Below, one piece after another: positions 4,954 to 64,000 of a stretch of DNA of 64,000 nt. Each line of letters begins with the position of its first letter. The stretch's first letter is position 1. Origin of the DNA: Myxococcota bacterium (lineage in GTDB: Bacteria; Myxococcota_A; Polyangia; Nannocystales; Nannocystaceae). The DNA lies in NCBI GenBank assembly GCA_039028615.1, contig JBCCHT010000021.1, positions 1 to 64,000 on the forward strand, given 5' to 3'. Under the pieces are notes generated by a model. It was not told where the DNA came from. It saw nothing but the letters and a program-made list of their open reading frames with translations, and did no database searches. Made by a program: the position numbers and the translations under genes.

Positions 4954-4971
4954 GGCCAGTGACGGAAGCGG

Positions 4972-39013: not shown

Positions 39014-39318
39014 CGTCCGCCGACACCGTTGGAGTGACCCCCTCGCACGCTGAACCCTGACGTGCCGATCGACTCCCCAAGTGTGTGTAGCAACGTAGCA
39101 CAACGGCGTTGGAGTCGATCAGCCACGAATCCGACCGTGCCTGCTCGCTTCGGTCGATCATCGCCGGTGGAAGGAACCCCATCTCGTCGTAGGGCGGCGC
39201 TGCGCGTTCTCTGCGATCTGGTGGTCCCCGCTCCTCGAGCGCATCGAGTTCGGGCTCGTCGGCGGACGAGGGACCCCTGGAGCGCCGCCGCGGTGTCGCT
39301 CACCGCGGCGCTCGCGGC

Positions 39319-41281: not shown

Positions 41282-42151
41282 CTACAGCTGGTCGAACCAC
41301 CACTGCGCTGCGGGTCCGAGGACCCGACCGCGAGGGGACGCCGCGAACAGCTGCACGAGCTGCGGCTTGCGGCCGAACCGGCGGGTTCGAAGGGCCACGA
41401 GACGACCGGAGTCCAGGTCGGCTGCGATCTCATGCCGCGGGACCCGGCACCAGCCGACCCCCGCGAGCAGGAGCTCGCGGCGGGTCACCGAGTCGTTGAA
41501 GCGCCACCTACGTTCGCCGGCGTCGTCGTCGAGCGGGAGTCCGTCCGCCAGCACGAGGTGGACGTGGCGCGCGAGCTGCCCGTCGCTGATGGGGCCGCGC
41601 AGTGTCGCCAGCGGGTGGCTCGGCGCGGTCACGGCGACCAGGTGTGCTCGAGTGCAGGCGCGGGCCTCGAAGGCACCTGCTTCGGGCACGACCGCCACGT
41701 CGGCTTGCTGTGCGGCGAGGGCTCGCGCCGGCTCGTCCCGCACCCCCGCACGCAGATCGATCTCCACCCCGTCGAACTCGGCCTCGAACGCCCGAAGGTG
41801 CGCCGCCAGACGCGGTGCGGGGTAGAGGACGTCGATGGCGAGACGGACGCGAGCCTCGACCACGTGCCCGAGCTTGCTCGCCCGGGCGCGAAGCCGTTCG
41901 AAGCCCTCGAGGATCTCGGTGGCGGATCGCAGCATCGCCCGGCCCTCGGGTGTCAGCTCGGGTCGCCGACGGGTGCGACGAAAGAGCGTGAGCCCCAGCT
42001 GGGTCTCCAGGCTGGCCACCTGGTAGCTCACCGCCGACTGGCTGCGCCCCAGCATCTGGGCGGCGCCCGAGAAGGACCCGGTGTCCACCACGGCGACGAG
42101 CACCCGGAGTTGGTCGACCGTGAGGGCGTCCGCGTAGCCTGATTCTGGCAT
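41282..42151 (-). CDS. LysR-family regulator
   Basis: DQLRVLVAVVDTGSFSGAAQMLGRSQSAVSYQVASLE; LGPAAQW. Confidence 0.93.
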   Translation of the reverse strand: MPESGYADALTVDQLRVLVAVVDTGSFSGAAQMLGRSQSAVSYQVASLETQLGLTLFRRTRRRPELTPEGRAMLRSATEILEGFERLRARASKLGHVVEARVRLAIDVLYPAPRLAAHLRAFEAEFDGVEIDLRAGVRDEPARALAAQQADVAVVPEAGAFEARACTRAHLVAVTAPSHPLATLRGPISDGQLARHVHLVLADGLPLDDDAGERRWRFNDSVTRRELLLAGVGWCRVPRHEIAADLDSGRLVALRTRRFGRKPQLVQLFAASPRGRVLGPAAQWWFDQL

Positions 42152-47224: not shown

Positions 47225-47480
47225 GGGAAATCGCCGGCTTGCCGGATTCAGTTGATCGATATTGACGATGGGGACCCAATCTGACCGCGCAGCAGGAAAC
47301 AACACGCGTCCTTTTTGAGAATCTCGAACAGGGGGCACAATAAGGGACCTTCGGGCCAGGACTAGGCCCTTTCGGTCCAAGTCGGTTACGTTCACAGAGC
47401 TGCCCTGAGGTACATGCTCGCCGCGGCCCCAGTGACGATGGGCTGGGATCTGTGCACCGTCGTCGTCGAGGCGACGACCC

Positions 47481-47873
47481 ATGGATACGGAACTCAGGAC
47501 ATTACGACGGAGAATCGCAGACGCACGGCCCGATGCCAGAGGTCGACGCCGATACGGCGAGGAGCTCCGTCGCGCGGTGATCGAGTACGCGGTACGGCGC
47601 GAGGAATCGGGCGACAGTCAATCCGAGGTCGCCCGGGATCTGAGGCTGACACAGCGCACGCTGTGGGGATGGCTTCGGTGCCGACGCGAAGCGATCGTGA
47701 AGCCAGTCGAACTCGTCGAGGAAGCGCCGGACGTCGAGGAAGCGGTAGACGTCGAGGAAGCGCCGAGTGCCGAGCTCGAACCGCAAACACGAGTTCTCAT
47801 CTTGCCCAGTGGCGCAGTCATCGAGGGCCTCTCGCTCGATGACGTGCTTGCCCTGGCGAGGACGTTGTCGTGA
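47481..47873 (+). CDS. tnpA: IS66 TnpA-like HTH protein
   Basis: RRYGEELRRAVI...SEVARDLRLTQRTLWGW; LPSGAVIEGL tail. Confidence 0.8.
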   Translation: MDTELRTLRRRIADARPDARGRRRYGEELRRAVIEYAVRREESGDSQSEVARDLRLTQRTLWGWLRCRREAIVKPVELVEEAPDVEEAVDVEEAPSAELEPQTRVLILPSGAVIEGLSLDDVLALARTLS

Positions 47874-48244
47874 TCGGAGCCCTCGGCCGCGTCAACGTCT
47901 ACGCGTACTGCGAGGCGGTCGATATGCGCAAGGGGTTCGAGGGCCTCGCCGCCCTGGTCCGCGAGCAGATGGGACGAGACCCGCTGTCGGGCGCGCTGTT
48001 CTTGTTCGCGAATCGACGGTGCAACCGAGCGAAGACCCTCCACTTCGATGGAACCGGAATGTGCATGCTGGCCAAGCGCCTCGAGAAGGGCCGTTTCGTG
48101 GCGCTGTGGAACCTCGCGTCGAGACCTACGATCCCGCTAACGCGACCCGAGCTCGAGCTGTTTCTGCAAGGGAGCCACCTCATCGGTCGCTTCCGAGTCG
48201 CACCTGCGGAGCTGACCGACAAAGACCTTGCCGTACGATCCTGA
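47870..48244 (+). CDS. tnpB: IS66 accessory protein TnpB
   Basis: VDMRKGFEGL, DPLSGALFLFANRR, FDGTG...KRLEKGRF. Confidence 0.93.
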   Translation: MIGALGRVNVYAYCEAVDMRKGFEGLAALVREQMGRDPLSGALFLFANRRCNRAKTLHFDGTGMCMLAKRLEKGRFVALWNLASRPTIPLTRPELELFLQGSHLIGRFRVAPAELTDKDLAVRS

Positions 48245-48261
48245 GGCGTCATCCTGACGAT

Positions 48262-49790
48262 GTGTCGGACCTCGACCGCCTCGCAGAGATCAACGATCTC
48301 GAGACGGCCAAGACGTTCTTGCTCGCGTACGCGAAGGAGAACGAGCGGCTCAACAAGCGGCTGAGCGAGGTGCTCGCGGAGCTGGCCGAGGCGAAGGGCA
48401 CGACGCGTCGGGAGCAACTCGAGCTGGAGCTGGTCGAGGTCAAGGAGCAGCTCGACAAGCTGCGGCATCAGACCTTCGGCGACTCTTCCGAGCGACGCCC
48501 GAAGCCATCGGCAGACGACAAACCGAAGCCGAGCGCAAAGAAGACGGGGCACGGCCCACGGCCGCAGCCGAAGCTCCCCATCAAGACACGCCTGCTGAAC
48601 TCGCGGAGGAAGACCGAGTCTGCCCGCGATGCAACGGTCGGCTCGAGGAGATCAAGGGGGCGACAGAGGACGCCGAACTCATCGACATGGTCCGGCAGCA
48701 CTTCTTGCTCGTGAGGCAGCAGCGTCGGAAGTACGGCTGTGGCTGCGACGTGCACACGACCCCTGCTCCGACGAGGCACATCAAGGGCGGACGATACTCG
48801 TTGCGGTTCGCGGTGGCGGTCGCCGTTGCAAAGTATGCCGATCACAACCCGCTCACTCGGCTGTGTCGGATGTTCGGGCCCCAGGGGCTCGACGTCGACA
48901 GCCAGACCCTCAGGGGCCAGAGCGAGGCCCTCGCTCAGCATCTCGTGCCGGCCTACGACAAGCTGCGGCAGCACATCCTCGGAGCCGATGTCGTCGGCGC
49001 GGACGAGACGTGGTGGCGGTTGATGGGCGGAAAGGCCAAGTCGACCAAGCGTTGGTGGGCCTGGTCGCTGACCAACCCCGACGCTGTCTGGCATGGCATC
49101 GACTCGAGCCGCTCGGCCAAGACCGCCGCCAAGTATCTAGAGGGCTTTGACGGCACATTGATGGTCGATGGCTACAAGGCCTACGACACGATGGCCAAGC
49201 ACGAGTCGGGGATCCGATTGGCGCACTGCTGGGCGCACGCCAGGCGGAAGTTCGTGGAGGCTGAGCCCAACTACCCGCAGTGCAGCGAGGCCATCGAGCT
49301 GATCGGCCAGTTGTTTGACCTCGACCGCGAGACCCGGGACCCGAGCCTGCTCGAGGGTGATGCCAAGCTGGAAGCCGAGCAGACGCGGCTGGCCAAACGC
49401 AACGCGGAGGCGAGACCAATCCTCGATCGACTCCGAGCCTGGGCACTCGAGCAACGCGGGTTGCCGAAGTCGGGCCTGCGCAAGGCCATCGACTACATGT
49501 TCCGGTACTGGGATGGGCTGACTGTGTTCCTCGAAGACGCCTACGTCCCGCTGGACAACAACCAGACCGAGAGAGCGCTTCGCGGCCTCGTCATCGGTCG
49601 CAAGAATCACTACGGCTCTCGCTCGAAGCGAGGGACCGAGGTCGCGGCGCTGTACTACTCGCTCATCGAAACGGCGAAGCTCCACGACATCAATCCGGCT
49701 GACTACATCTACACCGCGACCATCTTTGCGATCGAGTTCGGGGAGGCGTTGTTGCCCTGGGAGTACGCCGCGCTCCCGGAATCCGCCTGA
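48262..49790 (+). pseudogene. tnpC: IS66 transposase TnpC, frameshifted near 48596
   Basis: Leucine zipper/FG.SSER part in one frame; CPRC zinc finger, ADET, DGY, CWAHARRKF, DNN..ERALR in another. Confidence 0.88.
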
Positions 49791-50719: not shown

Positions 50720-52177
50720 ATGCCCATCCAGACGGACAATAACCCGGAATATCGCGGTCCCAAGGGGTTCAACAAGTATAGTCCGCTGAAAAAGCTACAG
50801 TTGGCCGCTGGTGACAGTGCGCACTACGACGCGCTCGTCAGCAGCCGAGAAACGCTACTCAAGGCTCCAGCAATCTTCCCTGCGGAACTGCTACTGGTCA
50901 TGCCGGACTGGGATGCGGCGGTGAACCAAGAGAACGCTCATGGCGGCAATCGACCTCCGCTGGTGGTGGTCTCGAGCAACCGCGCGGATTGGATCCTCGC
51001 AGGATTCAACCGAGCGACGGCGGTCCTTCATGCTCTTGGCGGCGGGCTGACCCACTTCAACAACATCAACGATGTCCGTGCACTCCTCGGCCCTACACCG
51101 GACCCTCAGTCTCCACCAGTCTACTGCCCCTTACGCCTGGGTCCTGCGCCGCGCCGTAGTGTCTATATCATCGTTCATGCGGCGGAATACGACTACTACA
51201 AGACCAAGCTGAGCGGCACCGGGGTCACGATTGTCGGCTGGCAGTTCAAACAACCGACCACAGGTCCCGTTGGCACGAACCCATTCAGTGGTTTCGGCGC
51301 GAGCCGGTTCGCAGCCATCGAGTTCCTCAAGACGCTGAGAAACAAGGCGCATGCGGCTGGAGGGGCCTACCCGTGGGGCAAGGCCTGGCTCTTCGACGAC
51401 AACGTCATCGGGTTCAGGTTGTTCGCCGGTCTCACGGCCGTCGAGACGGCCATGGGGGCCACCGACGTCTGCGCTGGATTCAACGGGCTCATCCAACCGA
51501 ATACACGGGATGAGAACCGAAAGTGGGCGAACGGTCAGCCGCCGAATAAAAAGGACGGTACGAATCTTCCTGCGCTGAAGGCCTCCAGGCCACCAGGCCT
51601 CGTTCAGCAAGCCTCACTTTGGAATATCGACTACATCGAGGCGCAAAATGTGAACTTCAGCCCGATCTTCGTCGCCTCCAAAGAAGATGTGAGCCTCACG
51701 CAGTACTTCAATACGAAGCCGATCACGTACCAGTGGTACGCGATCGACATATTCAAAGAGCCCGCGGGGTATGACAACAGCCCGGGCGCGGGCATCGTCA
51801 ATACCGCCCGGCAGGCGTTCACCAATTACTTCTCCACTCCAGAAGACAGCGTGTCGCTCGATGCCCCGTCTGCCCCCGCCACCACCGCGAACCCGACGCC
51901 ACCGCGGACGACTCAGACGCTACGGCACTTCGTGGACAATGTGGTGCTGCCGGGCTCGGTGAACGTCGATGCAACGCAGGCTGCCAACGCGGACATCCAA
52001 CGGCTGGCGGTCTGCCACAGCATCGAATCGGTACTGACCAGCGCGGTCAAGGGCGACTTTCCACCACCCGCGAAAGCAGCCCCGTACGCTTCGTATTTGG
52101 CGCCGGCCTCCGTCAGTGAGATGTTCAACCCCCCAGGCGGTGCCACGGTCACCGTCACCGCACGCGACGTTTCCTGA
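50720..52177 (+). CDS. Hypothetical protein with GT-A glycosyltransferase-like motifs (TAGT/GREB1-like)
   Basis: AGGAG RBS before ATG 50720; VVSSNR, IIVHAAEYDYY, GFGASR, AWLFDDN, QQASLWN, KEDV; CDS secure, family call tentative. Confidence 0.6.
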   Translation: MPIQTDNNPEYRGPKGFNKYSPLKKLQLAAGDSAHYDALVSSRETLLKAPAIFPAELLLVMPDWDAAVNQENAHGGNRPPLVVVSSNRADWILAGFNRATAVLHALGGGLTHFNNINDVRALLGPTPDPQSPPVYCPLRLGPAPRRSVYIIVHAAEYDYYKTKLSGTGVTIVGWQFKQPTTGPVGTNPFSGFGASRFAAIEFLKTLRNKAHAAGGAYPWGKAWLFDDNVIGFRLFAGLTAVETAMGATDVCAGFNGLIQPNTRDENRKWANGQPPNKKDGTNLPALKASRPPGLVQQASLWNIDYIEAQNVNFSPIFVASKEDVSLTQYFNTKPITYQWYAIDIFKEPAGYDNSPGAGIVNTARQAFTNYFSTPEDSVSLDAPSAPATTANPTPPRTTQTLRHFVDNVVLPGSVNVDATQAANADIQRLAVCHSIESVLTSAVKGDFPPPAKAAPYASYLAPASVSEMFNPPGGATVTVTARDVS

Positions 52178-52186
52178 GGCCCTCCG

Positions 52187-55100
52187 ATGTCTCTCACCGC
52201 ACTCGTCACCACTCTTCGGGGCCAGGCCGCCAGCTCGAGCATCGAGCTGGACAGCAGCGTCATCGCTTCCGACACGACGCGGGAAGCCATCGCCACCGCG
52301 CTGGCCCTGGGCAGCGGCGCGCACCTGACCATCGCAGGGGTCACCGCGGCCGACATCCCTGACCCCGCCAACGGCAAGGTCGTGATCTCGGTGGGCACCG
52401 CGTCGTTGCTCGGACGCACGGCGGTCCCGATTCACCTGGAGTTCACCGAGCCCCTGTCCACCATCGAGGTCATCATTCGGGCCACGGTGGGGACCGGGTG
52501 GGCGTTCAAAGACAGCTTCAAGGGCCTCGATACCTTCCCCTTCAACCTGCTGACGTTCACCGAGACGGCCTACACGCCACCCCAGTTCGTCTACACCACG
52601 ACGCCGAATTCGGCGTATCCGTGGCCGGACGACGCGGCCCACACGATCGATCTGGCCGCGGCGGGCCTGTACTTTCTCGCCGAGATCGGCGTGACCAGCT
52701 TCACCCTGGTCGGGCAGCTCCTCGGCAAAATCGTGAAGCCGGGGCCGGTCAAGTTCTACGGCCCGTTTTCACCCGTGGCTGGCCAGTCGCTGCCCGTGGG
52801 CAAGATTCGCGCCCCGCTGGGCGACGACACCGACACCTTCGATGTCGGGACCGGGTCCGACAAGCTCACGTTGAGCACTCCGGCCCTGGCCGTGCAGGTC
52901 ACCGAAGCCAAAGACTCGACCGAGCTGCAGCAGGTCGATCTGTTGGTCGAGTCGGTCTTGGACAAAAAGCTCGACATCGGCGTCGTTTTTCCGATCAGCG
53001 GAAACACCCTCGCACTCAACTCGGCCCCTTTGCCGCACGCGAGCTTCTCGATTCCCGACCTCATCGAGACCCTGCCCGGGGGCAGCGACTTCGAGGAGTA
53101 CATCCCAACCGAGCTCGAGAGCGTGTTCGACAACGTTGGGCTCGACTCGTTCTCGATGGTGTTCACGCTGAGTCCCAAGGTTCAGAGCATCGGCCTGGAG
53201 ATCGGCACGATCAAACCCTGGACGGTGATCAAGCCGAACGTGCTGGTACTCGAGAACATGGCGCTACGCATCGCCATCGTGGACCCGTCGGGGATTAACC
53301 TGACTCGGGTGCTCATGTCCGCGAGCGCCAAGTTCCTGCCCAACGCCTTCAAGGGTGATTTCGCGTTTACCGTCAGCTTGGACAAGCAGACGTCCTGGGA
53401 GGTCAGCTCGGTCAGCGGTGTCTACTCGGGGACCGTCAACCTGGGGGACCTGGTAGGCGAGCTGCTCGGCAACCAAGATTCCGTTCCCTCGGCGCTCCGG
53501 GCCATCGGGTTTTCGGACTTCAGTCTCTCGGCCATCCGGGCCGCCCCGGCCGACCCCTTCACCTACTCCTTCTCCGGCAACGCAGAGGTCGGCTTCCCGC
53601 TTCTGGGCACGGAGGTGAGCGCACAGATCTACGTCGGAGTCAGCAAGCCGGGGGCGGGGAACCCAACCGTCAACATGCTCGGCGGGCTCGTGATCGGCAA
53701 ACAGACCTTCTCGCTGAAGCTCGACCTGGCCAAGAGCGGGAGCCTGATGAGCGCGGAATGGTCGACGTCGGGCGAGCCGCTGGGGTTCAATGGCCTGGCG
53801 GATTCGCTGGGCCTCGATCTGCCGCAGATTCCGTCGGGGCTCGACTTGGGCCTGAAGTCCGCCGGGGTCAGCTACGACTTTGGCAAGAGCTCCTTCGCCC
53901 TCGACGCGGAGTCCGTCAACTTCGGCGACGCCACCTTTGCGAGCCTGAAGGTCGCCACGGTCTACCAGTACGCGTTTCAGCTCGAGGTCGGCCACGCCAT
54001 CTCGCTCGCCGACTTGCCCTTGGTGGGCAGCAAGCTGCCCGATGCTCACGCGTTGTCGATTTCGGACATGGGCCTGGTCTACGCGTCGAAGAAATTCGAC
54101 GGGACCCAGATTGGCGAGGTCAATCAATCGCTCGTGCCCCTGACCAAGGCCAAGAAGTTCTCCTCGGACGGGCTCACCCAGGGCTTCGAGTTCAGCGCAA
54201 CCTTGCAGCTGGCGGGCACCACGATTCCCGTGAATGTCGGCGTCCGCACGGATTCGACCAAGCCCACGGGTGGCGGCGGCGGTGGTGGTGAGGCCGACGC
54301 TCTGACCGCGTCTCCCGCGGACGGAACACCCGCGGTGGGGGCTTCTGCGCCCGCGAGCAAAGGCTCTTCGACCACCAAGTGGTTCAACATTCAGCGCCAG
54401 TTCGGGATCTTCCAGTTCAATCGCGTCGGTGTCGGCTACGTCGATGGGGAGCTCACCTTCTCCCTCGATGCGGGCATCGACCTGGGCCCTCTGACCTTCT
54501 CGGTCGACGGTCTCTCCATCGGGACGCCCATCGATGCTTTCGATCCCAGCTTCAACATCGCGGGGTTGGGGCTCGGCTACAACAAGCCCCCGCTCGAGAT
54601 CGAAGGCGCGTTGCTCAAGATCCCGAGCCAACAGCTCGCTCCCGACACCGCCTTCCAATTCGACGGCATGGCGGTCGTCAAGGCGGCCGAGTTCGGCCTC
54701 GCCGCCATCGGATCCTACGCGCAGCTGAAGTCGGGGGACCCCTCGCTGTTCGTGTTCGCGCAGCTCGAGGCTCCCCTCGGTGGGCCTCCGGCCTTCTTCA
54801 TCACCGGTCTGATGGCGGGCTTCGGCTTCAACCGGTCGCTCGCCATTCCGGGGCAGAACGAGGTCACGAGCTTCCCTCTGTTGGTTCTCGGCGCGCCTCC
54901 GGCCCCCGGCGTCAACGCGGCCGCCCAAAACCCCACCGATGTGCTCGACATCCTCGAGGGTCGCAAGGCCCTGCCGGACGGCACCCAAAAGGCCTGGATC
55001 GCGCCCAGCCCCGGTGACTACTGGCTGGGCATCGGCATCGAGGCGACGTCCTTCGAGATCGTCCAGTCCAAAGCGGTCCTGCTGGTGAGCTTTGGGCACG

Positions 55101-56575
55101 AGCTGGTGTTCACGCTGCTGGGTCTGTCGACCATGCAGCTGCCGCAGCCGGTCGAAAGCGCAGAGACCTACGCCTACGTCGAGCTGGGCCTGAAGGCGCA
55201 GCTCAAGCCCGAAGAAGGCTTCTTCGGGCTGTCGGCGGTGCTGAGCGCCAACTCGTACGTGCTGACGCCCGACTGCCATCTGACCGGTGGGTTCGCGTTC
55301 TATCTGTGGTTCGGCGACAACCCGCACTCCGGCCAGTTCGTGGTGACCCTGGGTGGCTACCACCCCGCATTCAAGCCGCCGTCCTTCTATCCCACTGAGC
55401 CGCGCCTCGGCTTCAACTGGGCGGTGAGCAGCAGCGTCTCGATCACGGGGGGCGCCTACTTTGCGCTGACGCCCTCGTGCGTGATGGCGGGCGGTAGCCT
55501 GGATGCGCAGTACCACGACGGTAACCTACGCGCCTGGTTCAAGGCCTATGCCGATGTGCTGATCTCCTGGCGTCCGTTCTTCTTCACGGCGGACATCGGG
55601 GTGTCGATCGGCGTGTCCTATCGGCTCAACTTGCTGTTTTGCCACAAGACGATCAGCGTGTCGCTCAGCGCCTCCGTGGACTTGTGGGGGCCTCCCACGG
55701 GCGGCAAGGTCCACGTGCACATCGTCGTGGTGTCGTTCACCGTGCACTTCGGTTCCGACGGCATCGCGGGTGCCAACGACCCCCTCGGCTGGACCGACTT
55801 CAAGAGTCTGCTGCCGCACCCGAACAACGTCTGCAAGATCACCGTCTCCGACGGCATGTACAAGACGTTGGCGAGCACCGTGAGCAGCAACAAGAAGCTG
55901 TGGGTGGTGCGAGCCCGCAGCTTCAAGTTCTTCACCCAGGCGGCCGTGCCCTCGAGCAAGCTCGCCTACCCGCACTCGACCGACCCCGGCACGACCGACT
56001 TCGATGGGGACCCGGTCGATATCTCGCCCATGAACAAGACGGGCGTCGACTCGACCCACAGCCTCAGCATCTACCCAAAGGGGGGCAGCAAGGCCAGCCC
56101 CATCGACGTCTCGAAGTGGTCGCTCGAAAAGCGCCACGGCAATGTGCCCAAGTCGCTGTGGGGAAAACCGCCGAGCCCATTTACGCAGATTCCCGCGACC
56201 CCCACCGCCGATGTCATCGACGGGTCGTTGGTGGGCTACGAAGTCTCCGCTCCGTCGCCGGAGATCGGACCTTCGCTGGGCCTGGTGAAGCTCACCGACG
56301 TCGGACAAGAGCACATCGCTCCCGAAGGGCAGGCGCCCATCGATGCGTCGGTCCAACCCTCGACCGCGTTCGTACCCGCTGCCGACGCGAGCTCGATCGG
56401 CAAGATCGCCGACATTCAATCCACGGCCAGCAGCGCCCGGGACAGCCTCTTCGGCGTCCTCGATGGCGCAGGGCTCTACAAGGGCCCCAATGAGTCCCTC
56501 GAGGCTCTCGGCCAGGATGCCGAACACCTCTTCAGCGATGCTCCCATGGTGCAGACCCCCAGGAGAAGCGCATGA
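52187..56575 (+). CDS. Large beta-rich DUF6603-like protein (1462 aa)
   Basis: After a Gly-rich linker: KWFNIQRQFG, GLGLGY..PPLEIEG, PSLFVFAQL..PLGGPPAFFITGL.AGFGFNR, CHLTGGFAF, FVVTLGGYHP, LWGPP.GG motifs that I associate with DUF6603. Confidence 0.8.
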   Translation: MSLTALVTTLRGQAASSSIELDSSVIASDTTREAIATALALGSGAHLTIAGVTAADIPDPANGKVVISVGTASLLGRTAVPIHLEFTEPLSTIEVIIRATVGTGWAFKDSFKGLDTFPFNLLTFTETAYTPPQFVYTTTPNSAYPWPDDAAHTIDLAAAGLYFLAEIGVTSFTLVGQLLGKIVKPGPVKFYGPFSPVAGQSLPVGKIRAPLGDDTDTFDVGTGSDKLTLSTPALAVQVTEAKDSTELQQVDLLVESVLDKKLDIGVVFPISGNTLALNSAPLPHASFSIPDLIETLPGGSDFEEYIPTELESVFDNVGLDSFSMVFTLSPKVQSIGLEIGTIKPWTVIKPNVLVLENMALRIAIVDPSGINLTRVLMSASAKFLPNAFKGDFAFTVSLDKQTSWEVSSVSGVYSGTVNLGDLVGELLGNQDSVPSALRAIGFSDFSLSAIRAAPADPFTYSFSGNAEVGFPLLGTEVSAQIYVGVSKPGAGNPTVNMLGGLVIGKQTFSLKLDLAKSGSLMSAEWSTSGEPLGFNGLADSLGLDLPQIPSGLDLGLKSAGVSYDFGKSSFALDAESVNFGDATFASLKVATVYQYAFQLEVGHAISLADLPLVGSKLPDAHALSISDMGLVYASKKFDGTQIGEVNQSLVPLTKAKKFSSDGLTQGFEFSATLQLAGTTIPVNVGVRTDSTKPTGGGGGGGEADALTASPADGTPAVGASAPASKGSSTTKWFNIQRQFGIFQFNRVGVGYVDGELTFSLDAGIDLGPLTFSVDGLSIGTPIDAFDPSFNIAGLGLGYNKPPLEIEGALLKIPSQQLAPDTAFQFDGMAVVKAAEFGLAAIGSYAQLKSGDPSLFVFAQLEAPLGGPPAFFITGLMAGFGFNRSLAIPGQNEVTSFPLLVLGAPPAPGVNAAAQNPTDVLDILEGRKALPDGTQKAWIAPSPGDYWLGIGIEATSFEIVQSKAVLLVSFGHELVFTLLGLSTMQLPQPVESAETYAYVELGLKAQLKPEEGFFGLSAVLSANSYVLTPDCHLTGGFAFYLWFGDNPHSGQFVVTLGGYHPAFKPPSFYPTEPRLGFNWAVSSSVSITGGAYFALTPSCVMAGGSLDAQYHDGNLRAWFKAYADVLISWRPFFFTADIGVSIGVSYRLNLLFCHKTISVSLSASVDLWGPPTGGKVHVHIVVVSFTVHFGSDGIAGANDPLGWTDFKSLLPHPNNVCKITVSDGMYKTLASTVSSNKKLWVVRARSFKFFTQAAVPSSKLAYPHSTDPGTTDFDGDPVDISPMNKTGVDSTHSLSIYPKGGSKASPIDVSKWSLEKRHGNVPKSLWGKPPSPFTQIPATPTADVIDGSLVGYEVSAPSPEIGPSLGLVKLTDVGQEHIAPEGQAPIDASVQPSTAFVPAADASSIGKIADIQSTASSARDSLFGVLDGAGLYKGPNESLEALGQDAEHLFSDAPMVQTPRRSA

Positions 56576-58905
56576 CTTCGAAGCAATTCTCCCACGACAT
56601 TCCGGTCGGGGATATCCAGTTCTACGACGACTACTTGCCGGCCATCAGCGCGGGTAACTGGGTCATCGAGGTCGGCCAGACCCTGACGCACAGTGGCGCG
56701 ACCATCAACGAGGGGGACACGCTCTCGACGGTCCAAGAGTTCGTCGTCAGCGGGCCTCAGGTCCACATGGACCCGAGCACGGTCATCAACAAGTACCCGC
56801 CCAACTCCACATCCGGGAAGTACGGCGAGGTGCTGCCCCATATCGTGCTGGGCGATCCCATGTTCCCGTGGGAGCGCAAGATCATGGATCGCTCGACCCG
56901 CCAGCCGTGGCTGGCGCTGCTGGTCTTCAGCCCCGACGAGCTGAAGGGCCCGCAGAACTCGACCACCCGCCTCACCAACACCACGGTCGCGAAGTTCATC
57001 GCTCCCAAAAGCGGCGTGCTCAAGCCGGCCATCCAGATCGAAGACGACATCGATCAGGACACGCAGGTCTGCAGCTACATCGAGATCTCCACCGACACCT
57101 TCAAGGACGTCCTGCCTCGGCTCGACGAGCTCCGTTTCCTGTCGCACTGCCGCCGGATCAACACGGGCGACAAGGCGATCTTGGGCCTGAACGAAGACGG
57201 CTTGTTCTCGGTCGTGGTGGCCAATCGCTTCCCCGAGCAGCCCGCCACTGGCAAACCGCCGGCTCCCAGCATCGTGCACCTGGTCTCGGTCGAGGGCTTC
57301 GACGCGGTCCTGAACGACAACCCCGACTTCGGCAGCAACACCACGGTCCAGCTGCTCACCTTGGCGTCGTGGACCTTCTCGACGATCGCGGACAACGCCG
57401 AGGACTTCTACGGGTTGTTCAATCACATCGTGGCCGAGGAATACGACGGGCACACCTACACGGCCGACAACATGTTGCTGCGGCTGCCGACCCCCACCAT
57501 CAGCGGCACGGGCCAGGCCCAGACCGAAGCGGCGGACCGCGTGCAGTCGGGCTTCGTCCCTCTCACGTACCACACGCGGGTCGGGGCCGAGACCTTCGCC
57601 TGGTACCGCGGACCCTTGGCGCCGTGTTTCACGACCGAGCTGACGAGGACGACTCCGTTCTTCACCAGTGACGCGGCGTTGATCTACGACGAGACCTTCG
57701 GGGTCTTCGACACCTCGCTGGCCACGGCGTGGCAGATCGGGCGGGCCGTCGCGTTGAGCGACAAGCGTTTCGGGGGCATGGTGCTGGACTTTCGTCGCCG
57801 CGCCCACCGGATCACCGATGCCCTCCTGCATCGATTGCAGAGCGAGCACTTCTCCGCGGCCCAAATCGATCAAGTCGAGCATGACTCGCTGGTCCAGGAC
57901 GAGTTCACCACGCTGCTCAACGCTCAGCTGCTCGCCGACATCGGAAACACCACCCCGCAGCCTGCAGTCCCCGCGGCCGTGCCCGAGGCGGCGACACCGA
58001 CGGATCCCAAAAAGGCGGTGCAGGATTTTCTGGCGCAGCCCGAGGTTCAGGCGACCCTGAAGCAGCTGGTCGCCGCAGACCTCGATCCCATCGCCCAATG
58101 GCTGGCGCGCCTGCTGCTGCTCTATCCCGTGCCCTTCAATCACCTCGTGCCCGACCCGAACATGCTGCCGGTCGAGTCGCTGCGTTTCTTCTATCTCGAC
58201 AACAATTGGATCAGCGCGTTGCTGGATGGGGCGCTCACCATCGGCATGGAGTCGAGCCGGGACACCTTCTTCTACGAGATGACCCACGGGATCCTGCACG
58301 AGGCGGCACATACCGCCGCGAAGTTCGAGCGCTCCCGTCTGACCGGGGTGGACCCCGACCCGCAGGAGGTGAGCGAAGGCCTGGTCAGCGGCTTCTTGCT
58401 CCGCTCCGCCCTCGTCTCCGGGTGGCCCAACCTCGCGGTACGGCCGAAGGTCAGCGCGGGCACCAAGTTGCTCAAGTTCCTACGCTTCGAACGGCTGTCG
58501 CCGAACGTGCTGTTCTGCTTGATCGACGGGGTTCCCGATACGATCGAATTTGCCGAGCCACAGGAGTCGTTTCGCTTCGGCGTCAACGGGAGCGGCGACG
58601 TCCCCCTGCGCAACCTGGTCCCCCCGAAAAACGCGGGAGATCCGGGCCTGGACACCCAGCTCCCGGGGGACCCGATGTTCAAGGTCTACGATGCGAGCGG
58701 AGCGAACGCAGAGCACATGCGCGCCGCGGGCAGTCGGGTCCTGAACATCGACCCCTCGGCCACGACCGGGCTCATTCAAGCCCTGAACACAGCGAACGGC
58801 CAAGCCCACTCGCCTGCCGTGACCAATCCTCCGATGGGCCCCGGGGCATTTGCGATGCAGATGATCGACTCCCCCGAAGTCATCACGTGGCATAGCCAAT
58901 CCTGA
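56572..58905 (+). CDS. Uncharacterised protein (777 aa) of the DUF6603-type cluster
   Basis: ATGA overlap; LPHIVL..P..PWER, PWLALL, VHLVSVEG, WYRGPLAP, AWQIGR, LPVESLRFFYLD..W...LLDGA, GFLLRSALVSGWP motifs. Confidence 0.85.
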   Translation: MTSKQFSHDIPVGDIQFYDDYLPAISAGNWVIEVGQTLTHSGATINEGDTLSTVQEFVVSGPQVHMDPSTVINKYPPNSTSGKYGEVLPHIVLGDPMFPWERKIMDRSTRQPWLALLVFSPDELKGPQNSTTRLTNTTVAKFIAPKSGVLKPAIQIEDDIDQDTQVCSYIEISTDTFKDVLPRLDELRFLSHCRRINTGDKAILGLNEDGLFSVVVANRFPEQPATGKPPAPSIVHLVSVEGFDAVLNDNPDFGSNTTVQLLTLASWTFSTIADNAEDFYGLFNHIVAEEYDGHTYTADNMLLRLPTPTISGTGQAQTEAADRVQSGFVPLTYHTRVGAETFAWYRGPLAPCFTTELTRTTPFFTSDAALIYDETFGVFDTSLATAWQIGRAVALSDKRFGGMVLDFRRRAHRITDALLHRLQSEHFSAAQIDQVEHDSLVQDEFTTLLNAQLLADIGNTTPQPAVPAAVPEAATPTDPKKAVQDFLAQPEVQATLKQLVAADLDPIAQWLARLLLLYPVPFNHLVPDPNMLPVESLRFFYLDNNWISALLDGALTIGMESSRDTFFYEMTHGILHEAAHTAAKFERSRLTGVDPDPQEVSEGLVSGFLLRSALVSGWPNLAVRPKVSAGTKLLKFLRFERLSPNVLFCLIDGVPDTIEFAEPQESFRFGVNGSGDVPLRNLVPPKNAGDPGLDTQLPGDPMFKVYDASGANAEHMRAAGSRVLNIDPSATTGLIQALNTANGQAHSPAVTNPPMGPGAFAMQMIDSPEVITWHSQS

Positions 58906-61900
58906 TGAAACGAGCGACCACCGTGACAACCCCACAACTCGTCGTTCCCGTCAATCTGGACGTCCTGCTGGTCAACCAGCAACTGACCACTCGCGATGGC
59001 CATCTGCGCTGGTGGCAGTTCAACTACATCGCGCTGAAGAACTGGCTGAGCCCCGAGCCCACGGCCGGCGATCGCGACAGCGGCGTCAACCAGCCGGGCG
59101 CCTATCTGCACTGGAGCCTGCCGCGATCGCTGCGTCAGGGCACGCAGGACCGCAAGGACACGTCGATCAACTATCCCTTGGTGCCCAATCGCTGGCTGGT
59201 GGTTCGCGTGTCCGGCACGACGACGCGCACGGCCACCGCATGGGTCGTCGAGAGCGATTGCCCCTTCGGCGCGGCCATCCAGACCCGCTTTCCCAGCATC
59301 GACGTCGGGCAGAGCAGCCAATACTTGGTCACCCCCGAGATCATCCAGGGGTGGCTCGCGAGCGCCGACGCGTATCGCAAGGACACCACGCTCAGCCCGA
59401 CGAGCACGGACCCGCAGGTCGCCAACATCGGCGTCGCTTTTCCGCAGAGCTCTTGGAGCGAGCGCGCCGCTTCGGACCACGGTTTCCTCACCGCGATGGG
59501 GCCGGGCAACGAGGCCTTCAGCACCTACTACGCCCACAACGTCGGCGTGTTCTCGATGTATGACGACCTGAGCGGAGTCGACAAAGACACCCTCAGCTAC
59601 ATGGTGGTCGGTTGGTACGCCAACCCCTCCGACGACGTCTTGGCCCAGGCGCAAGCCAGCGCCGATGCCTACAACGAACTGCTCAGCCAGCTGAAGTGGA
59701 CCCCGGACGAGGGGGCGACCGCCCAGTGTGCAACCAGCGTGTACCAAGGCATGGCCTTGGGCCTCGACTGGGACCCCAGCGGTAGCCCTCCGCCCAACGA
59801 TCCGCTGGAGAAGACGCGTGAGGCCAAGAGCCTCACCGTTTCGCTGGGCAACTCCACCATCGATGCGTTCACCGCCTTGGTGAGCAAGCAGCTCACGACC
59901 GCGGGTCACTCGAACCAGACCGTGCAGCTGCTCGAGGCCTTTCACTACAACCTGTTGCCGGTCATCAATCAGGTCAACGGCCCCGCCCTGCTGGCCGAAG
60001 AGATCCGGGACAGCTGGTACGGCTCCAAACCGGGCGGCTACGGCTGGACGATCGTCGACAAGAAGTCCAATGGCGAAGCGGAGACCCAGCTGACGACGGC
60101 CGAGGCCGCGTGGTTGGCTCAGCTCAACTCCGATCAGGCGAACCTCGACGAGGCCCTCAGCGAGCTGTTCCAGCTGCAGTGGGACCTGAACGCGACTTGG
60201 TACAAGTCGAATCTCCTGCCGACCCTGTTCCCGGCTCCGGACAATACTCCGAGCCAGTCGGATCTGGACGCCGCACTCGATCCCAAGACGAGCCATGGCA
60301 TCACGGCGCAGGTCGTGAGCCAGTACAACAAGGTCAACGCGCTCTTCGAGAAAGTGCCGCGGCCCATCTCGACGAACGCATCCAACCCTCAGCAAGCGCA
60401 ACAGGCTGGCATCGCGGCGTTCGCTGCGACCAAGAGCCTGGACTCCGCCAAGACCCTCAAGGCGGTGACGGCAGGTCGGTACTACAAGGCCACCAACCCG
60501 GTCATGATGCTATCGGGGGTGCAGCCGCCCGCGGACAGCGACCCCAACCAGGCGCTGCAGGTCCGTACTACGTCGACACTGGTGACGGCATTTTCTGCCG
60601 CGAGCACCACCATCGATGCGGCCAAGCTCGGCTCGACCATCCCGGCACTACCGAGCGTGGCCAACCTCAATGCTGCCGTCCCCGCGCTGATGGCAGAGTT
60701 CTTCCTGCTCGACCCGAGCAACGCACCGGTCATCGCCACGGCCTTGAGCATCTCGGAGAGCGACGTGCAGAGCGTGATGACCGGGCACCAGGCGGCCAAC
60801 TACACCGGGCCGCTTCCCGAGCTGGACCTGCGCCTGTGGCAACAGCAGTGGAGCCCGCTCTACGTCGAGTGGAAGATCAAGTACACCCACATCCCATACC
60901 AGAACAAAGCAGGCACGACCCGCTACTGGAGCTTCGATGGCACTGGGTACCAGTACACGCCGGGGGGCACGGCACCGACCACCACCGATCGTGAGGTGAG
61001 TGGGATCTCGATGCTGGGTCCGAGCGCGCAGTTCGTGTTCAAAAAACGGCTCGAAGACTACCTAAAGAAATACCCCAATGCCGATCTGTCGCAGCTGGAC
61101 CAGTGGATCGAGCAAATCGACGACTGGAAGTTCCTCAGCCAAGAACTGACCGGTTTCCACGACCTGTTGGCCATGCACGATCACCGCGCCTTTCGGCGGC
61201 CGATCGACAGCGATAGGGTCGGGAGCGGCCCGGCCCTTTCCGTCGCAGACCTGGCTGGTTTCCCGACCGGATCGAAGCAGGGGGCGACCACCCTGCCCAG
61301 CAGTTTTCAGGGCAACGTGGGGTCGCTCCCAAACCTGCCCAACGGACCCGTCTACGAGTTTCAAGGGGTTCGTTCTGGACAGGGCTACTTCGAGATGTTG
61401 CGGCTCTACGACAAGTTTGGACGAACGCTTTGGATCATCGAAGAAGGGGAGAGCACCGGGCTGCACGATGCCGCCAACTTCCCCTTGATTCGGGATCCCG
61501 ATCTCACCCCCGATCCGGCGCATACCGTGCCGACCGGCATCGCGGCCGTCGCCCAGTTTCCCCCCACGTGCTTGCAAGAAAGTCGCCTCGAGTTCGACCT
61601 GGTCGATGCGACCGAGGAGACGAAGGTCCTCGACCGCTCTGCCGGCGTCAATCCCATCGGAGGCTGGGTGCTGCCCAACCATCTGGATGGGTCCATTCTC
61701 CTGTTTTCGCCCACGGGCGAGGCGCTGGGCGAGTATCGTCTGTTCGCGCAGGACGGCGGTACCAAGCAGGGCGCCTGGACGGCTCCGGCCCATAGCCAGA
61801 TCGAGACCCTCGCCGACGTCCAGGCCGCCGCGCCCCTGCTGCACTCGATGATCACCGCCTCGGGCTTCGGCACCCAGGCGGCATTCGAGACCTTCCTCGA

Positions 61901-62771
61901 TAGCATCGACTCGACGTTGTGGACGGTCGATGGCCTGGGTGACCGTGACGACCAGAACTTGTCGGTGCTGATCGGGCGCCCGCTCGCCCTCGTGCGGGCG
62001 CGGCTACGCATGCGGCTGCATGGGCCTGCCGTGACCGCGTCCGACTGGGCGCACACCCGGCTCGACTGGTCCACGCCGGATGTCCCGGACTTCGTCAGCT
62101 ACAAGTTCGGCATTCGCATCGGGGACCAAGCCACGCGCGAAGACGGTGTGATCGGGTACTACGCCGATACCGACTATTCGACCTTCAACAGCGTGGTCGC
62201 TCCAGACACGGCGAGCCCCCAGACCTACGTGAAACAGATCGGCCCCATCGGCCAAGCGACGGGCGGCAACTTCATCGATCTCGACTATGAGGATGGCAGC
62301 CAGCAGTACTTGAGCATTTTGGTGGATCCACGCGCCGCGATGCATGCGATCACGGGCGTGTTACCGGCAAAGAAGGTCAACATCCCCGCCGGTTTGGTGG
62401 AGCGGGCGCTGACGAAGATGGAGGTCGGCTTCACGCTGGGGCCCATCCTGACCGAGATCCGCGAGACGCCGACCCAGGGCGGCACGAAGCCCGCCCACCC
62501 CATGGCAATCTCCATCCCTTCGCCAGCCGAGCAAGGCGGCACGTGGTCGTGGTGGGAAGGCGACGGCAAGGGGCACTGGACCGGCTACGACCTCACGACC
62601 TCGACGACGACGGCCAAGCTCGAGGACACGCCCAACACGCTGCGCGAAGGCACCTTGCAGCTGACCATCGATCTCGACAGTGGTGGCGCGGGCTCGGACA
62701 ACGGAGGTGAATCAGGAGACGCTCCAGATCCAGGGAGCGTGGCCCACGTCGTCAGGCAACGCAGTCACTAA
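58905..62771 (+). CDS. Uncharacterised protein (1288 aa) of the DUF6603-type cluster
   Basis: TGATG overlap; LHWSLP, VPNRWLVVR, LSYMVVGWY, W.PLYVEW, DKFGR, PIGGW.LPNHLD, GRPLALVRA, DGVIGYY, HAITGVLP motifs. Confidence 0.85.
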   Translation: MKRATTVTTPQLVVPVNLDVLLVNQQLTTRDGHLRWWQFNYIALKNWLSPEPTAGDRDSGVNQPGAYLHWSLPRSLRQGTQDRKDTSINYPLVPNRWLVVRVSGTTTRTATAWVVESDCPFGAAIQTRFPSIDVGQSSQYLVTPEIIQGWLASADAYRKDTTLSPTSTDPQVANIGVAFPQSSWSERAASDHGFLTAMGPGNEAFSTYYAHNVGVFSMYDDLSGVDKDTLSYMVVGWYANPSDDVLAQAQASADAYNELLSQLKWTPDEGATAQCATSVYQGMALGLDWDPSGSPPPNDPLEKTREAKSLTVSLGNSTIDAFTALVSKQLTTAGHSNQTVQLLEAFHYNLLPVINQVNGPALLAEEIRDSWYGSKPGGYGWTIVDKKSNGEAETQLTTAEAAWLAQLNSDQANLDEALSELFQLQWDLNATWYKSNLLPTLFPAPDNTPSQSDLDAALDPKTSHGITAQVVSQYNKVNALFEKVPRPISTNASNPQQAQQAGIAAFAATKSLDSAKTLKAVTAGRYYKATNPVMMLSGVQPPADSDPNQALQVRTTSTLVTAFSAASTTIDAAKLGSTIPALPSVANLNAAVPALMAEFFLLDPSNAPVIATALSISESDVQSVMTGHQAANYTGPLPELDLRLWQQQWSPLYVEWKIKYTHIPYQNKAGTTRYWSFDGTGYQYTPGGTAPTTTDREVSGISMLGPSAQFVFKKRLEDYLKKYPNADLSQLDQWIEQIDDWKFLSQELTGFHDLLAMHDHRAFRRPIDSDRVGSGPALSVADLAGFPTGSKQGATTLPSSFQGNVGSLPNLPNGPVYEFQGVRSGQGYFEMLRLYDKFGRTLWIIEEGESTGLHDAANFPLIRDPDLTPDPAHTVPTGIAAVAQFPPTCLQESRLEFDLVDATEETKVLDRSAGVNPIGGWVLPNHLDGSILLFSPTGEALGEYRLFAQDGGTKQGAWTAPAHSQIETLADVQAAAPLLHSMITASGFGTQAAFETFLDSIDSTLWTVDGLGDRDDQNLSVLIGRPLALVRARLRMRLHGPAVTASDWAHTRLDWSTPDVPDFVSYKFGIRIGDQATREDGVIGYYADTDYSTFNSVVAPDTASPQTYVKQIGPIGQATGGNFIDLDYEDGSQQYLSILVDPRAAMHAITGVLPAKKVNIPAGLVERALTKMEVGFTLGPILTEIRETPTQGGTKPAHPMAISIPSPAEQGGTWSWWEGDGKGHWTGYDLTTSTTTAKLEDTPNTLREGTLQLTIDLDSGGAGSDNGGESGDAPDPGSVAHVVRQRSH

Positions 62772-62807
62772 AGCCCCATTCGAGCCCCAAGACCGAAAGA
62801 AAATCCC

Positions 62808-64000
62808 ATGGCCCCGACCCCGCCCATTCTCGAATACCAGTTCTCGACGTTTCCCTCTCAGCTACAGGTCAGCACCCCTGATACGGAGGCCCAAGGGCGG
62901 ATCGACGTCAGCGTATCCAGCGGTGCCACGCCGAAGTATTGCAGCATCATTCGCATCGCAATTCCCCTGGGGACGGACCCGACGGAGTTCGGCCCGGGTC
63001 CACTCACCGCGTCGGTGAGCAGTGCGAAATGGACTCTCTCCGACCATGACATCGTCCCTGCCAGCACGTTCGGCCTGAACACTCAGACTCAGTACGCGCG
63101 CTTTACCTTCAATGCCCGCGACGCCACGGCCTACAAGATCGACTACAACCTCGTCTTCAGCGTGCAGGGGGCGGTCAACCAGAGCATCGGCAGCTTCGGC
63201 TATCTGGTTCAAGAGACCTCGGGCACCAGCTCGACCAACCTCACCCCAAAGCAGGGGACCTTCCCCCTGACCAAGGTCACGCCGTTCTTCTATCTCGAGA
63301 ACCTGGTCACGACCACCACCACCGCCCCCCTGGTTCCCGCCTCGCAGTTCGCCAACAGCACCGCCATTCGCCTCGCCTGGGAGAGCAATGGCACCTGGTT
63401 CCAGGTCTTCGAGAAGGGGAACACCACACCGCTCTATTCCGGGCCCAACAAGACCTTCACCGTTCCCGCTGGAGCGGCGACCGACACCACCTACTACGTC
63501 CAGGCTGCAGTGACCCAAGATCCGGCGGGGGACACGGCCAGCTTCGAACCGATCTACTTGTACGAGTCGGCCACCGTCACCATCACGAACCCGGACCTGA
63601 CCCCGAACAGCTCGATCGTCACCGGAAACTTCAAGGCGATGTTCGGGGCAGACGTTGGTCCGTTCACCGCGACCACGGGGGCCCTCTCCCATGCGATGAC
63701 CAACTCGAGCGGCACCAACGCTACGCTCATCCTGACCAACAAGACGGCGTACGCCAGCGGCGACCAGCCGTCCGGACTCATGGTCAACGTCGTGAAATCG
63801 ACCGATGTCGCGATCCGGACCTCCGGGATCATCGAGGTCGATGTCCCGGCCAAGAGCACCGCGATCAAGACCGTCGGCACGATCGTGGTGACCGTACCGG
63901 TCACCAGCGACATCGCGTTCAGTACCAACGGGGTCATCAAGTCGGCGTCCGGCCTCACCGCGACCACCATGCTCGAGACGAGCGAAGGGCCCCGGCCGGC
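62808..64000 (+). CDS. Thr/Ser/Val-rich beta-strand protein, partial (runs off the window); fibre/adhesin-like
   Basis: Hand-translated open frame of ~397 codons from ATG 62808 (MAPTPPILEYQFSTFPSQLQVSTP...MLETSEGPRP); absent from the ORF track because no stop lies in the window. Confidence 0.85.
   Translation, partial: MAPTPPILEYQFSTFPSQLQVSTPDTEAQGRIDVSVSSGATPKYCSIIRIAIPLGTDPTEFGPGPLTASVSSAKWTLSDHDIVPASTFGLNTQTQYARFTFNARDATAYKIDYNLVFSVQGAVNQSIGSFGYLVQETSGTSSTNLTPKQGTFPLTKVTPFFYLENLVTTTTTAPLVPASQFANSTAIRLAWESNGTWFQVFEKGNTTPLYSGPNKTFTVPAGAATDTTYYVQAAVTQDPAGDTASFEPIYLYESATVTITNPDLTPNSSIVTGNFKAMFGADVGPFTATTGALSHAMTNSSGTNATLILTNKTAYASGDQPSGLMVNVVKSTDVAIRTSGIIEVDVPAKSTAIKTVGTIVVTVPVTSDIAFSTNGVIKSASGLTATTMLETSEGPRP

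Follow-up and report, generated by a model that had tools for sequence, protein, structure and literature searches.

A DUF6603 operon in a Myxococcota bacterium joins a conserved core to an exchangeable enzyme and an exchangeable fibre-like subunit: a candidate enzyme-delivery system

We analyzed a stretch of 64,000 nucleotides (the window) from a Myxococcota bacterium of the family Nannocystaceae (assembly GCA_039028615.1, contig JBCCHT010000021.1, positions 1 to 64,000) and focused on an operon of five large genes around a DUF6603 gene at its 3' end. The contig, of which the window forms the initial 64 kb, measures 212 kb and belongs to a genome of 12.3 Mb with 68.3% GC. A first-pass annotation, made from the sequence without database searches, had proposed at least five co-oriented, coupled genes here. 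All five open reading frames (ORFs) were found on the plus strand where it had placed them: ORF1 at 50720-52177 (485 amino acids (aa) counted from ATG), ORF2 at 52187-56575 (1462 aa, containing DUF6603), the conserved core subunits ORF3 at 56572-58905 (777 aa) and ORF4 at 58905-62771 (1288 aa), and ORF5 at 62808-64304 of the contig (498 aa), of which the window holds 62808-64000, the stop codon lying 304 nt beyond it. The junctions also agreed with its description, namely a 9-nt gap between ORF1 and ORF2, an ATGA overlap between ORF2 and ORF3, a TGATG overlap between ORF3 and ORF4, and a 36-nt gap between ORF4 and ORF5. The next long gene begins 570 nt 3' of ORF5 and looks unrelated. No sigma-70-like promoter was detected at the operon, and terminators were no more frequent than expected by chance. 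DUF6603 occurs once in the genome.

The assignment of ORF2 to DUF6603 proved right: PF20248 matched aa 735-1248 with an E-value of 1e-157 and 526 bits against a cut-off of 27, covering model positions 1-498 of 502. ORF1, ORF3, ORF4, and the 397-aa window part of ORF5 had no match in Pfam or NCBIfam at E<=1, and full-length ORF5 (498 aa) matched no family either under stricter limits. Two motifs that the annotation had named for partners of DUF6603 proteins were present, LPHIVL..PWER in ORF3 and LHW.LP..VPNRWLV in ORF4. Comparison with hhalign revealed no homology among ORF2, ORF3, ORF4, and ORF5. In a crude hydropathy scan, none of the five proteins contained a signal-like or clear membrane stretch, as the annotation had stated; the highest 19-aa mean was 1.74 and lay within predicted strands of ORF2.

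Relatives of the operon were collected with an ORF3 profile built from 119 relatives, which gave at least 440 confirmed stretches in species genomes. The best 80 of these, taken with 10-kb flanks, span ten bacterial phyla and one archaeal bin (loci are given L numbers and single proteins P numbers below). ORF3 relatives share 42-65% identity over the full length, and the closest operon relative, from a Nannocystaceae bin, has 69% identity in ORF3. ORF2 lies directly before ORF3 in 77 of the 78 loci with upstream room, the exception having a broken ORF2 frame, and ORF4 follows ORF3 in all 77 evaluable loci. The homologues are therefore syntenic, and ORF2-ORF3-ORF4 is a fixed core. Of the 68 loci evaluable for ORF5, 58 carry a relative of it, and ORF1 has a relative in 15 of 70.

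The occurrence of the cassette was patchy, as the annotation had stated for bacteria. None of five congeners (72-95% complete) carried it, and it was detected in 8 of 72 genomes of the family (two weakly) and in 10 of 400 genomes of a wider sample that was searched with a stricter first look. The occurrence in some fungi, also named there, was not confirmed: no fungal name appeared among the protein relatives listed, a search that included no eukaryotic collection. ORF3 was not found in viral contigs. Ten plasmid records carry the cassette, including Streptomyces clavuligerus pSCL4. The core is present on megaplasmids of culturable strains, pSCL4 (L189) and a Paenibacillus polymyxa plasmid (L190); the former copy has two ORF5-type genes and the latter a short ORF2 of 908 aa. 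The proposal of a predation apparatus is unsupported as such: the carriers found belong mostly to the actinomycetes, Chitinophaga, Paenibacillus, and the acidobacteria, and none of the five congeners has the operon. In the archaeal (Methanoculleus) bin, L048, the front gene of the core is nitrilase-like and the ORF5 gene has shifted upstream; this case may reflect transfer or a binning error. Six metagenome loci (L145, L152, L166, L168, L170, and L174) are ordered ORF4-fibre-GT-ORF2(-ORF3), where GT denotes glycosyltransferase, and represent permuted or tandem cassettes. This order suggests two sub-modules, enzyme-ORF2-ORF3 and ORF4-fibre. The fibre of L145 belongs to another family, which contains GNVGIGT repeats and has an end resembling a chaperone.

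The gene before ORF2 could be assessed in 70 loci with sufficient room. It encodes an ORF1-type GT in 15, a ribosome-inactivating protein (RIP)-like protein in 14 (10 by a Pfam RIP match and 4 by BLAST), an EEP nuclease in 11, a DUF4135/LanM-like kinase in 6, and an MBL hydrolase in 5. Unnamed nuclease-like proteins occupy two further slots, and HNH, GIY-YIG-like, nitrilase-like, LodA/LodB (lysine oxidase), and zinc-protease-like proteins one each; the labels GIY-YIG, nitrilase, protease, and unnamed nuclease are our own reading of motifs, with no database match behind them. A subtilase-like protein was also seen among the upstream genes of relatives. The variable upstream enzyme postulated by the annotation is consequently borne out as a front slot drawn largely from toxin-type families. 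A signal-like stretch was present in 1 of 55 front proteins, at a doubtful start, and four control proteins of the same contig scored 2.0-2.6 in this crude scan. No small partner (immunity) gene recurred in the flanks, and the gap between ORF1 and ORF2 is only 9 nt.

Several loci show further arrangements of the front slot. The unnamed nuclease-like proteins (L034:5144-5854 and L040:5216-5881) form a family of ~230 aa with no Pfam, NCBIfam, or PADLOC match, and P0258 is a GT fused to a C-terminal domain of this type, as judged by eye from shared motifs. Tandem ORF1-type glycosyltransferase genes (L054:2481-3893 and 4126-5529) precede a single ORF2, and a RIP-like gene (L071:16394-17260) lies 3' of ORF4 in the position of the fibre gene. 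Two related-looking genes of 320-390 aa with an S-P-D motif (L188:5764-7920), without an NCBIfam match, are located just upstream of a GT gene. L134, a locus from a host-family relative, has a family-4 glycosyltransferase of the conflict-system type (L134:820-2073, minus strand) two genes past its fibre gene.

The N-terminal part of ORF2 follows the enzyme. This front (~aa 1-600; 52187-53986, plus strand), made of ~120-residue beta-sheet units, is enzyme-class-specific and groups by enzyme class rather than by core. On the ORF3 tree, L054 (GT) and L020 (DUF4135) form a sister pair (100%) with 77-80% identity in DUF6603, but they share 19-33% in the first 600 ORF2 residues, where L054 and the GT locus L010 share 43-50%; the crossover lies near aa 600. 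The nearest relative from another family had the same enzyme class in 44 of 49 cases for ORF2 aa 1-300, compared with 30 of 49 for the last 720 aa and 32 of 49 for ORF3. On 55 loci, the enzyme class changed 10 times on the ORF2-front tree (minimum 9) versus 17 times on the ORF3 tree (GT 1 vs 4, DUF4135 1 vs 5), these being quick trees with long branches in which the GT and DUF4135 groups have low support. They comprise 55 of 59 assigned rows, L008, L014, L037, and L073 having been dropped for short or broken frames. For 25 rows, picked by hand and without the exceptions L015, L081, L053, L059, L034, L040, and L048, there were 4 changes on the front tree and 8 on the ORF3 tree. On the front tree of these rows, each class came together as one group (97-100%), and a single GT clade (approximately unbiased test, p-AU 8e-38) and a single DUF4135 clade (p-AU 9e-113) were rejected on ORF3. 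GT is accompanied by the same ORF2 front across three phyla, and L022 and L026 lack enzyme and front alike. The ORF2 front is exchanged jointly with its enzyme, although it is not strictly enzyme-specific. We propose that in the window it may serve as a loading adaptor or shield for ORF1.

The motifs S-S-x-R, G-F-G-x-x-R, W-x-x-D-D-N, Q-Q, and E-D of ORF1 are invariant or nearly so across alignments of 17 and 114 relatives. In the 114 sequences D226, D227, and D323 are invariant, and N228 and E322 are at least 90% conserved. We take the S-S-x-R, G-F-G-x-x-R, D-D-N, and E-D motifs of the family to be a GT-A active site. PF20691 was weakly matched by 7 of 17 and 11 of 22 ORF1 relatives, all below the cut-off (best 26.2 bits vs 27.5), and not by ORF1 itself; PDB sequence searches with ORF1 (single sequence, 17 rows, and 114 rows) returned nothing significant. 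These features suggest that ORF1 is a GT-A-type glycosyltransferase, distantly like the TET-associated glycosyltransferases (TAGT). The family comprises 208 clusters at 50% identity, and among 150 listed nearly all are stand-alone proteins of 400-500 aa. A metagenome search with ORF1 only gave 47 loci, and 34 of the 36 with at least 300 nt downstream run into a GT-type ORF2 front. The first-pass annotation had overlooked both the glycosyltransferase likeness of ORF1 and the joint exchange of the enzyme with the N-terminal part of ORF2.

The AlphaFold model of ORF2 aa 293-1462 (pLDDT 82, pTM 0.63) is a long antiparallel beta-meander, which agrees with the beta-rich scaffold that had been predicted. 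The meander is continuous in the conserved part (53987-56575, plus strand), which holds DUF6603 (54389-55930). Within aa 293-600, groups of 4-7 strands lead into a short helix and a crossing loop. A profile of aa 310-440 matched more than once in 35 of 85 ORF2 relatives, in one of them six times at ~120-residue spacing, and had no match in reversed sequences; in the window ORF2 it matched only itself. In 34 of 42 listed ORF2 strands the two faces differ by at least 1.0 in hydropathy, a count without a control, and any sandwich would alternate. ORF2 relatives span about 900-3800 aa. A giant subtype (L122, L125, L128, L129, L131, and L138) has ORF2 proteins of 2400-3800 aa with ~2000 unannotated N-terminal residues; its ORF3 is mostly split in two, and a ~1000-aa propeller and Ig protein follows in two loci.

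Fold searches with ORF2 retrieved solely generic large sheets, at root-mean-square deviations (rmsd) of 10-18 A, and generic barrels and ApoB, at 10-50 A. TamB, YhdP, ATG2, VPS13, and RHS did not appear in these lists, which were filled by barrels, left chains of >3000 aa unaligned, and barely covered the front. An outer-membrane barrel was considered for ORF2 and rejected (rmsd 12-17 A, no signal peptide, occurrence in monoderms). By crude hydropathy ORF2 has no N-terminal membrane anchor, and among 72 relatives three score high enough for one, at least one of these owing to a doubtful start. A PDB profile search gave nothing under E 0.2, and the ESM Atlas gave nothing usable for ORF2 1-700.

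In the ORF3 model (pLDDT 88, pTM 0.81), two parts resemble beta-sandwiches and a long insertion (aa ~382-515) is helical; distant forms of ORF3 are split at this insertion. Its fold was unmatched in the PDB, PDB-wide VIA, and viral models, with a best Foldseek E of 0.03 and a best VIA Z of 4.8 (Ig-like domains); against a Yersinia toxin complex (Tc) chain, E was 0.11 and TM 0.07. ORF4 had no Pfam, NCBIfam, PADLOC, or PDB sequence match, and its ESM Atlas neighbours were all unnamed clusters; PDB profile searches with ORF3 and ORF4 gave nothing under E 0.2. We infer for ORF4 a candidate role as membrane-crossing or hub subunit.

Natural fusions connect the subunits. Among 120 listed of 864 DUF6603 proteins longer than 1750 aa, an MBL enzyme stands at the start of 22, ORF3 forms the end of 15, 12 hold all three, and one ends in two ORF5 domains; none has a GT, RIP, EEP, or DUF4135 domain. 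The survey was made for fusions other than those with ORF4. Three further ORF2-ORF3 fusions were found, P0121 joins ORF3 to an ORF5-type adhesin, and L139 carries a genomic MBL-ORF2 fusion. Because natural fusions join enzyme to ORF2, ORF2 to ORF3, ORF3 to fibre, and ORF2 to fibre, they support the view that enzyme, ORF2, ORF3, and fibre belong to one physical assembly.

ORF5 relatives share an N-terminal region of ~270 aa and carry exchangeable tips, as expected for the terminal fibre-like subunit that had been proposed. Up to five tandem paralogues occur per locus. The C-terminal ends include a Peptidase_S74 chaperone in five relatives (L005, L009, L011, L012, and L013), LamG in one, and a beta-propeller in others, and phage tail-fibre families were matched by 6 of 30 scanned relatives. 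ORF5 of the window had no Peptidase_S74 or tail-fibre family match. Its tip is 42-48% shared with four distant hosts and gave one weak match to a cyanophage tailspike (7EEA, E 0.29). The tip was not found in phages, the N-terminal ~270 aa gave no match to a phage family, and a PDB search with the ORF5 profile returned nothing significant.

An IS66 element (tnpA-like, tnpB, and tnpC; PF05717, PF03050) is located at 47481-49790 on the plus strand, 930 nt upstream of ORF1, and the operon has 64.0% GC compared with 68.3% for the genome. The annotation had taken the position beside IS66 and lower-GC DNA to fit horizontal acquisition. The features themselves are confirmed, but no empty insertion site was definable in the five congeners that would tie IS66 to transfer; the element is therefore context only, and we claim no role for it in operon mobility. 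Its tnpC looks frameshifted, with the N-terminal and DDE parts of the transposase in different frames near 48590-48690. Adjoining it on the minus strand, 45482-47482 encodes a 666-aa membrane and coiled-coil protein (DUF4407, E 2e-8) with 55.9% GC, the lowest-GC gene seen. Farther upstream, a 575-aa lipoprotein-like protein (39319-41046, minus strand) had no Pfam or NCBIfam match, and what we take to be four LysR-type regulators, two of them close paralogues, lie within 10 kb on the minus strand (31891-32793, 34574-35455, 38123-39103, and 41282-42151).

Sequence tests for Tc, RHS, the type VI secretion system (T6SS), the extracellular contractile injection system (eCIS), and PADLOC systems were all negative, and the earlier impression that the operon matches no characterised system stands. 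ORF2 is a full member of DUF6603 (PF20248), a family that has no function, and its partners ORF1, ORF3, ORF4, and ORF5 have no family model. The cassette is like eCIS, tailocins, and T6SS in its exchangeable fibres, chaperone-tipped in some relatives, and its exchangeable, signal-less candidate effectors; unlike them, it lacks genes for sheath, tube, baseplate, VgrG, and PAAR, both within the operon and as recurrent neighbours in the flanks of the 80 loci. It also differs from polymorphic toxins, with no immunity gene directly after ORF1. PADLOC 2.0 (5027 models) gave no match at E<=0.01 for the five window proteins. ORF1 resembles the TET-associated glycosyltransferases (PF20691) and GT-A enzymes in the weak matches of its relatives and in the D-D-N and E-D motifs, but it is about twice the model length and is tied to DUF6603 genes, not TET/JBP genes.

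Tc toxins (10.1101/706333, PMC10847048, PMC7861908) have giant subunits without signal peptides, a carrier rich in beta structure, and a toxic enzyme that varies, and they occur in split or fused forms. The cassette shares all of these, with a putatively toxic enzyme. Unlike Tc, it shows no match to TcA, TcB (SpvB-like), or an RHS/YD-repeat TcC (Pfam and NCBIfam at E<=1; PDB profiles), its enzyme is encoded by a gene of its own upstream or fused at the N-terminus, instead of being a C-terminal self-cleaved RHS part, and it has its own fibre gene and no linked lysis cassette. As modelled, ORF2 resembles repeating-beta-groove (RBG)/AsmA-like proteins (TamB, YhdP, GspN, VPS13), of which it is a possible member, in its long, apparently amphipathic meander with ~120-residue repeats of variable number; the RBG motif is outlined in PMC12066543 as five antiparallel strands and a loop. 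AsmA proteins have an N-terminal membrane anchor according to the relevant part of PMC13542527, whereas ORF2 lacks one, occurs in monoderms, and is partnered with enzymes and fibres. In its conserved anchor, variable tip, and S74 domain in some relatives, ORF5 is like phage tail fibres and the Bdellovibrio MAT fibres as portrayed in passages of PMC10769870; unlike both, the window copy lacks S74, and the first ~270 aa of ORF5 have no counterpart among phage families.

The cassette combines a fixed core with two exchangeable parts, a fibre and an enzyme that mostly acts in the cytoplasm and is tied to a putative adaptor of its own, and this is the layout of a delivery system. On balance, we lean slightly towards the view that the operon encodes a multi-subunit particle that carries one enzyme into or onto another cell, similar in logic to AB-type or Tc toxins and non-homologous to them. 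All subunits would fold in the cytoplasm, because they have no signal peptides. The front of ORF2 would bind and shield the enzyme, and its long amphipathic sheet may cradle or thread it; such shielding would account for the missing immunity gene. ORF3 would link ORF2 with ORF4 and the fibre, and the particle would exit through lysis or an unlinked exporter. The tip of ORF5 may then bind a surface receptor, ORF4 and/or the helices of ORF3 would breach the membrane, and the enzyme would work inside the target. Here the payload would be the predicted GT-A-type glycosyltransferase, with a DNA base or a protein as acceptor, and the RIP-type payloads found in relatives suggest that eukaryotic microbes are one class of target. 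More tentatively, and with some doubt, we suggest a stand-alone particle class unrelated to Tc, contractile injection systems, RHS, and AB5, in which an RBG-like sheet acts as enzyme carrier with a loading adaptor, ORF3 and ORF4 form a membrane-crossing unit of new fold, and ORF5 sets the target. It could provide a route for signal-less actinomycete RIPs and other enzymes into eukaryotic microbes or bacteria.

A number of observations weigh against enzyme delivery. The core subunits have no sequence likeness to a known pore or needle (Pfam, NCBIfam, and PDB sequences), no export or lysis gene recurred across families in the flanks of the 80 loci, and 12 of the 70 front slots hold no recognisable enzyme class. 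MBL, HNH, EEP, and TAGT-like GT payloads are equally typical of anti-phage systems. The match between front and enzyme has exceptions: L051 and L057 retain a GT-type front with no GT, L034 and L040 pair a RIP-type front with a different nuclease-like protein, L048 has a nitrilase-like protein on an MBL-type front, and EEP and MBL need three changes each on the front tree. GT-ORF2 fusions were absent among the 120 proteins listed. Front length correlated with enzyme length over 56 rows (rho 0.73), but not significantly over 8 classes (0.55, p 0.16), and we therefore claim no length scaling. Plain linkage with a recombination point inside ORF2 can also yield the co-segregation of enzyme and front; however, linkage alone leaves unexplained why the crossover sits inside ORF2 and not between the genes.

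The absence of signal peptides, immunity gene, and export genes would equally suit an intracellular defence or programmed-death complex, in which the core keeps its enzyme silent until a subunit, the fibre-like one or another, detects phage or damage and the enzyme is released. Such a complex would also fit the patchy, plasmid-borne occurrence, the matches of relatives' front enzymes to defence-associated MBL and HNH models of PADLOC, and the modification of DNA by TAGT-like enzymes. We nevertheless consider it unlikely: the five window proteins match none of the 5027 PADLOC models, S74-chaperoned, lectin-tipped, tandem fibres are outward-facing binding modules as far as the part of PMC10769870 on such fibres goes, and RIPs act mainly on eukaryotic ribosomes according to sections of PMC13592729. 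The shape of ORF2 raises another alternative, a bridge-like lipid or lipoprotein conduit of the AsmA/VPS13 RBG type, whose operon would build a membrane-contact or surface structure with the front enzyme modifying the envelope or being displayed. The long sheet with one hydrophobic face and the ~120-residue strand-helix-loop repeats, variable in number over about 900-3800 aa, would fit the RBG motif as outlined in PMC12066543, and an AsmA-like protein carries lipoproteins in the account given in part of PMC12439988. However, ORF2 is without the N-terminal anchor described as typical of AsmA in that portion of PMC13542527. The conduit is made quite improbable also by the occurrence in monoderms and one archaeal bin, by a distribution that is patchy and not housekeeping, and by RIP and nuclease partners without a lipid role.

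Two further explanations dispense with delivery into cells. An extracellular scavenging or biofilm machine, whose fibre anchors the particle on a substrate while the enzyme acts outside cells, would need no membrane crossing; several proteins encoded upstream in relatives (nucleases, the subtilase-like protein, and lysine oxidase) are able to work outside cells, and no pore-former was identified. Glycosyltransferases need nucleotide sugars, LanM-like kinases ATP, and RIPs ribosomes, all of which are cytoplasmic. Such cytoplasm-dependent enzymes (GT, RIP, and LanM-like kinase) fill 35 of the 70 front slots, and we accordingly give this machine little credence. Still less do we expect the core to be a machine of other function and the front slot to be just a hot spot of recombination, occupied by selfish or unrelated genes whose products do not bind the core. 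Loci without a front enzyme exist (L022, L026, L051, L057, and L074-L078), and the RIP gene of L071 sits downstream of ORF4, as a hot spot would allow. Against it stand the reverse linkage from ORF1 to a GT-type ORF2 front in 34 of 36 loci, the 22 in-frame MBL-ORF2 fusions among the 120 listed, and the constancy of the GT-associated front over three phyla together with the joint lack of enzyme and front in L022 and L026.

No paper naming DUF6603, PF20248, or the cassette was found, in a search beyond which supplements and subscription papers could list the genes. New in this analysis are the range of toxin-type payloads, the GT payload, the tree-tested enzyme-specific ORF2 front, the reverse linkage, and the fusion network. 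What the analysis establishes is the genetic layout, the module exchange, the fusions, and two structural models; binding, release, entry, and toxicity are inferred. In its section 15, a 2026 review (PMC13592729) describes the delivery of Streptomyces RIPs into cells as unknown and gives eight examples with signal peptides; the cassette is not described in that part of the review. The RIP-like proteins of the cassette appear signal-less, unlike those eight examples.

If the operon delivers enzymes, it would represent a further general class of bacterial toxin delivery, which has escaped notice so far although it is present in at least ten phyla and on plasmids, and the fold of at least one core protein of this apparatus is unmatched. 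It would also be a candidate answer to how Streptomyces RIPs enter cells. The enzyme and adaptor module offers a direct small-scale binding test. Even if the operon served defence or formed a lipid bridge, DUF6603 and four unnamed families would gain a role.

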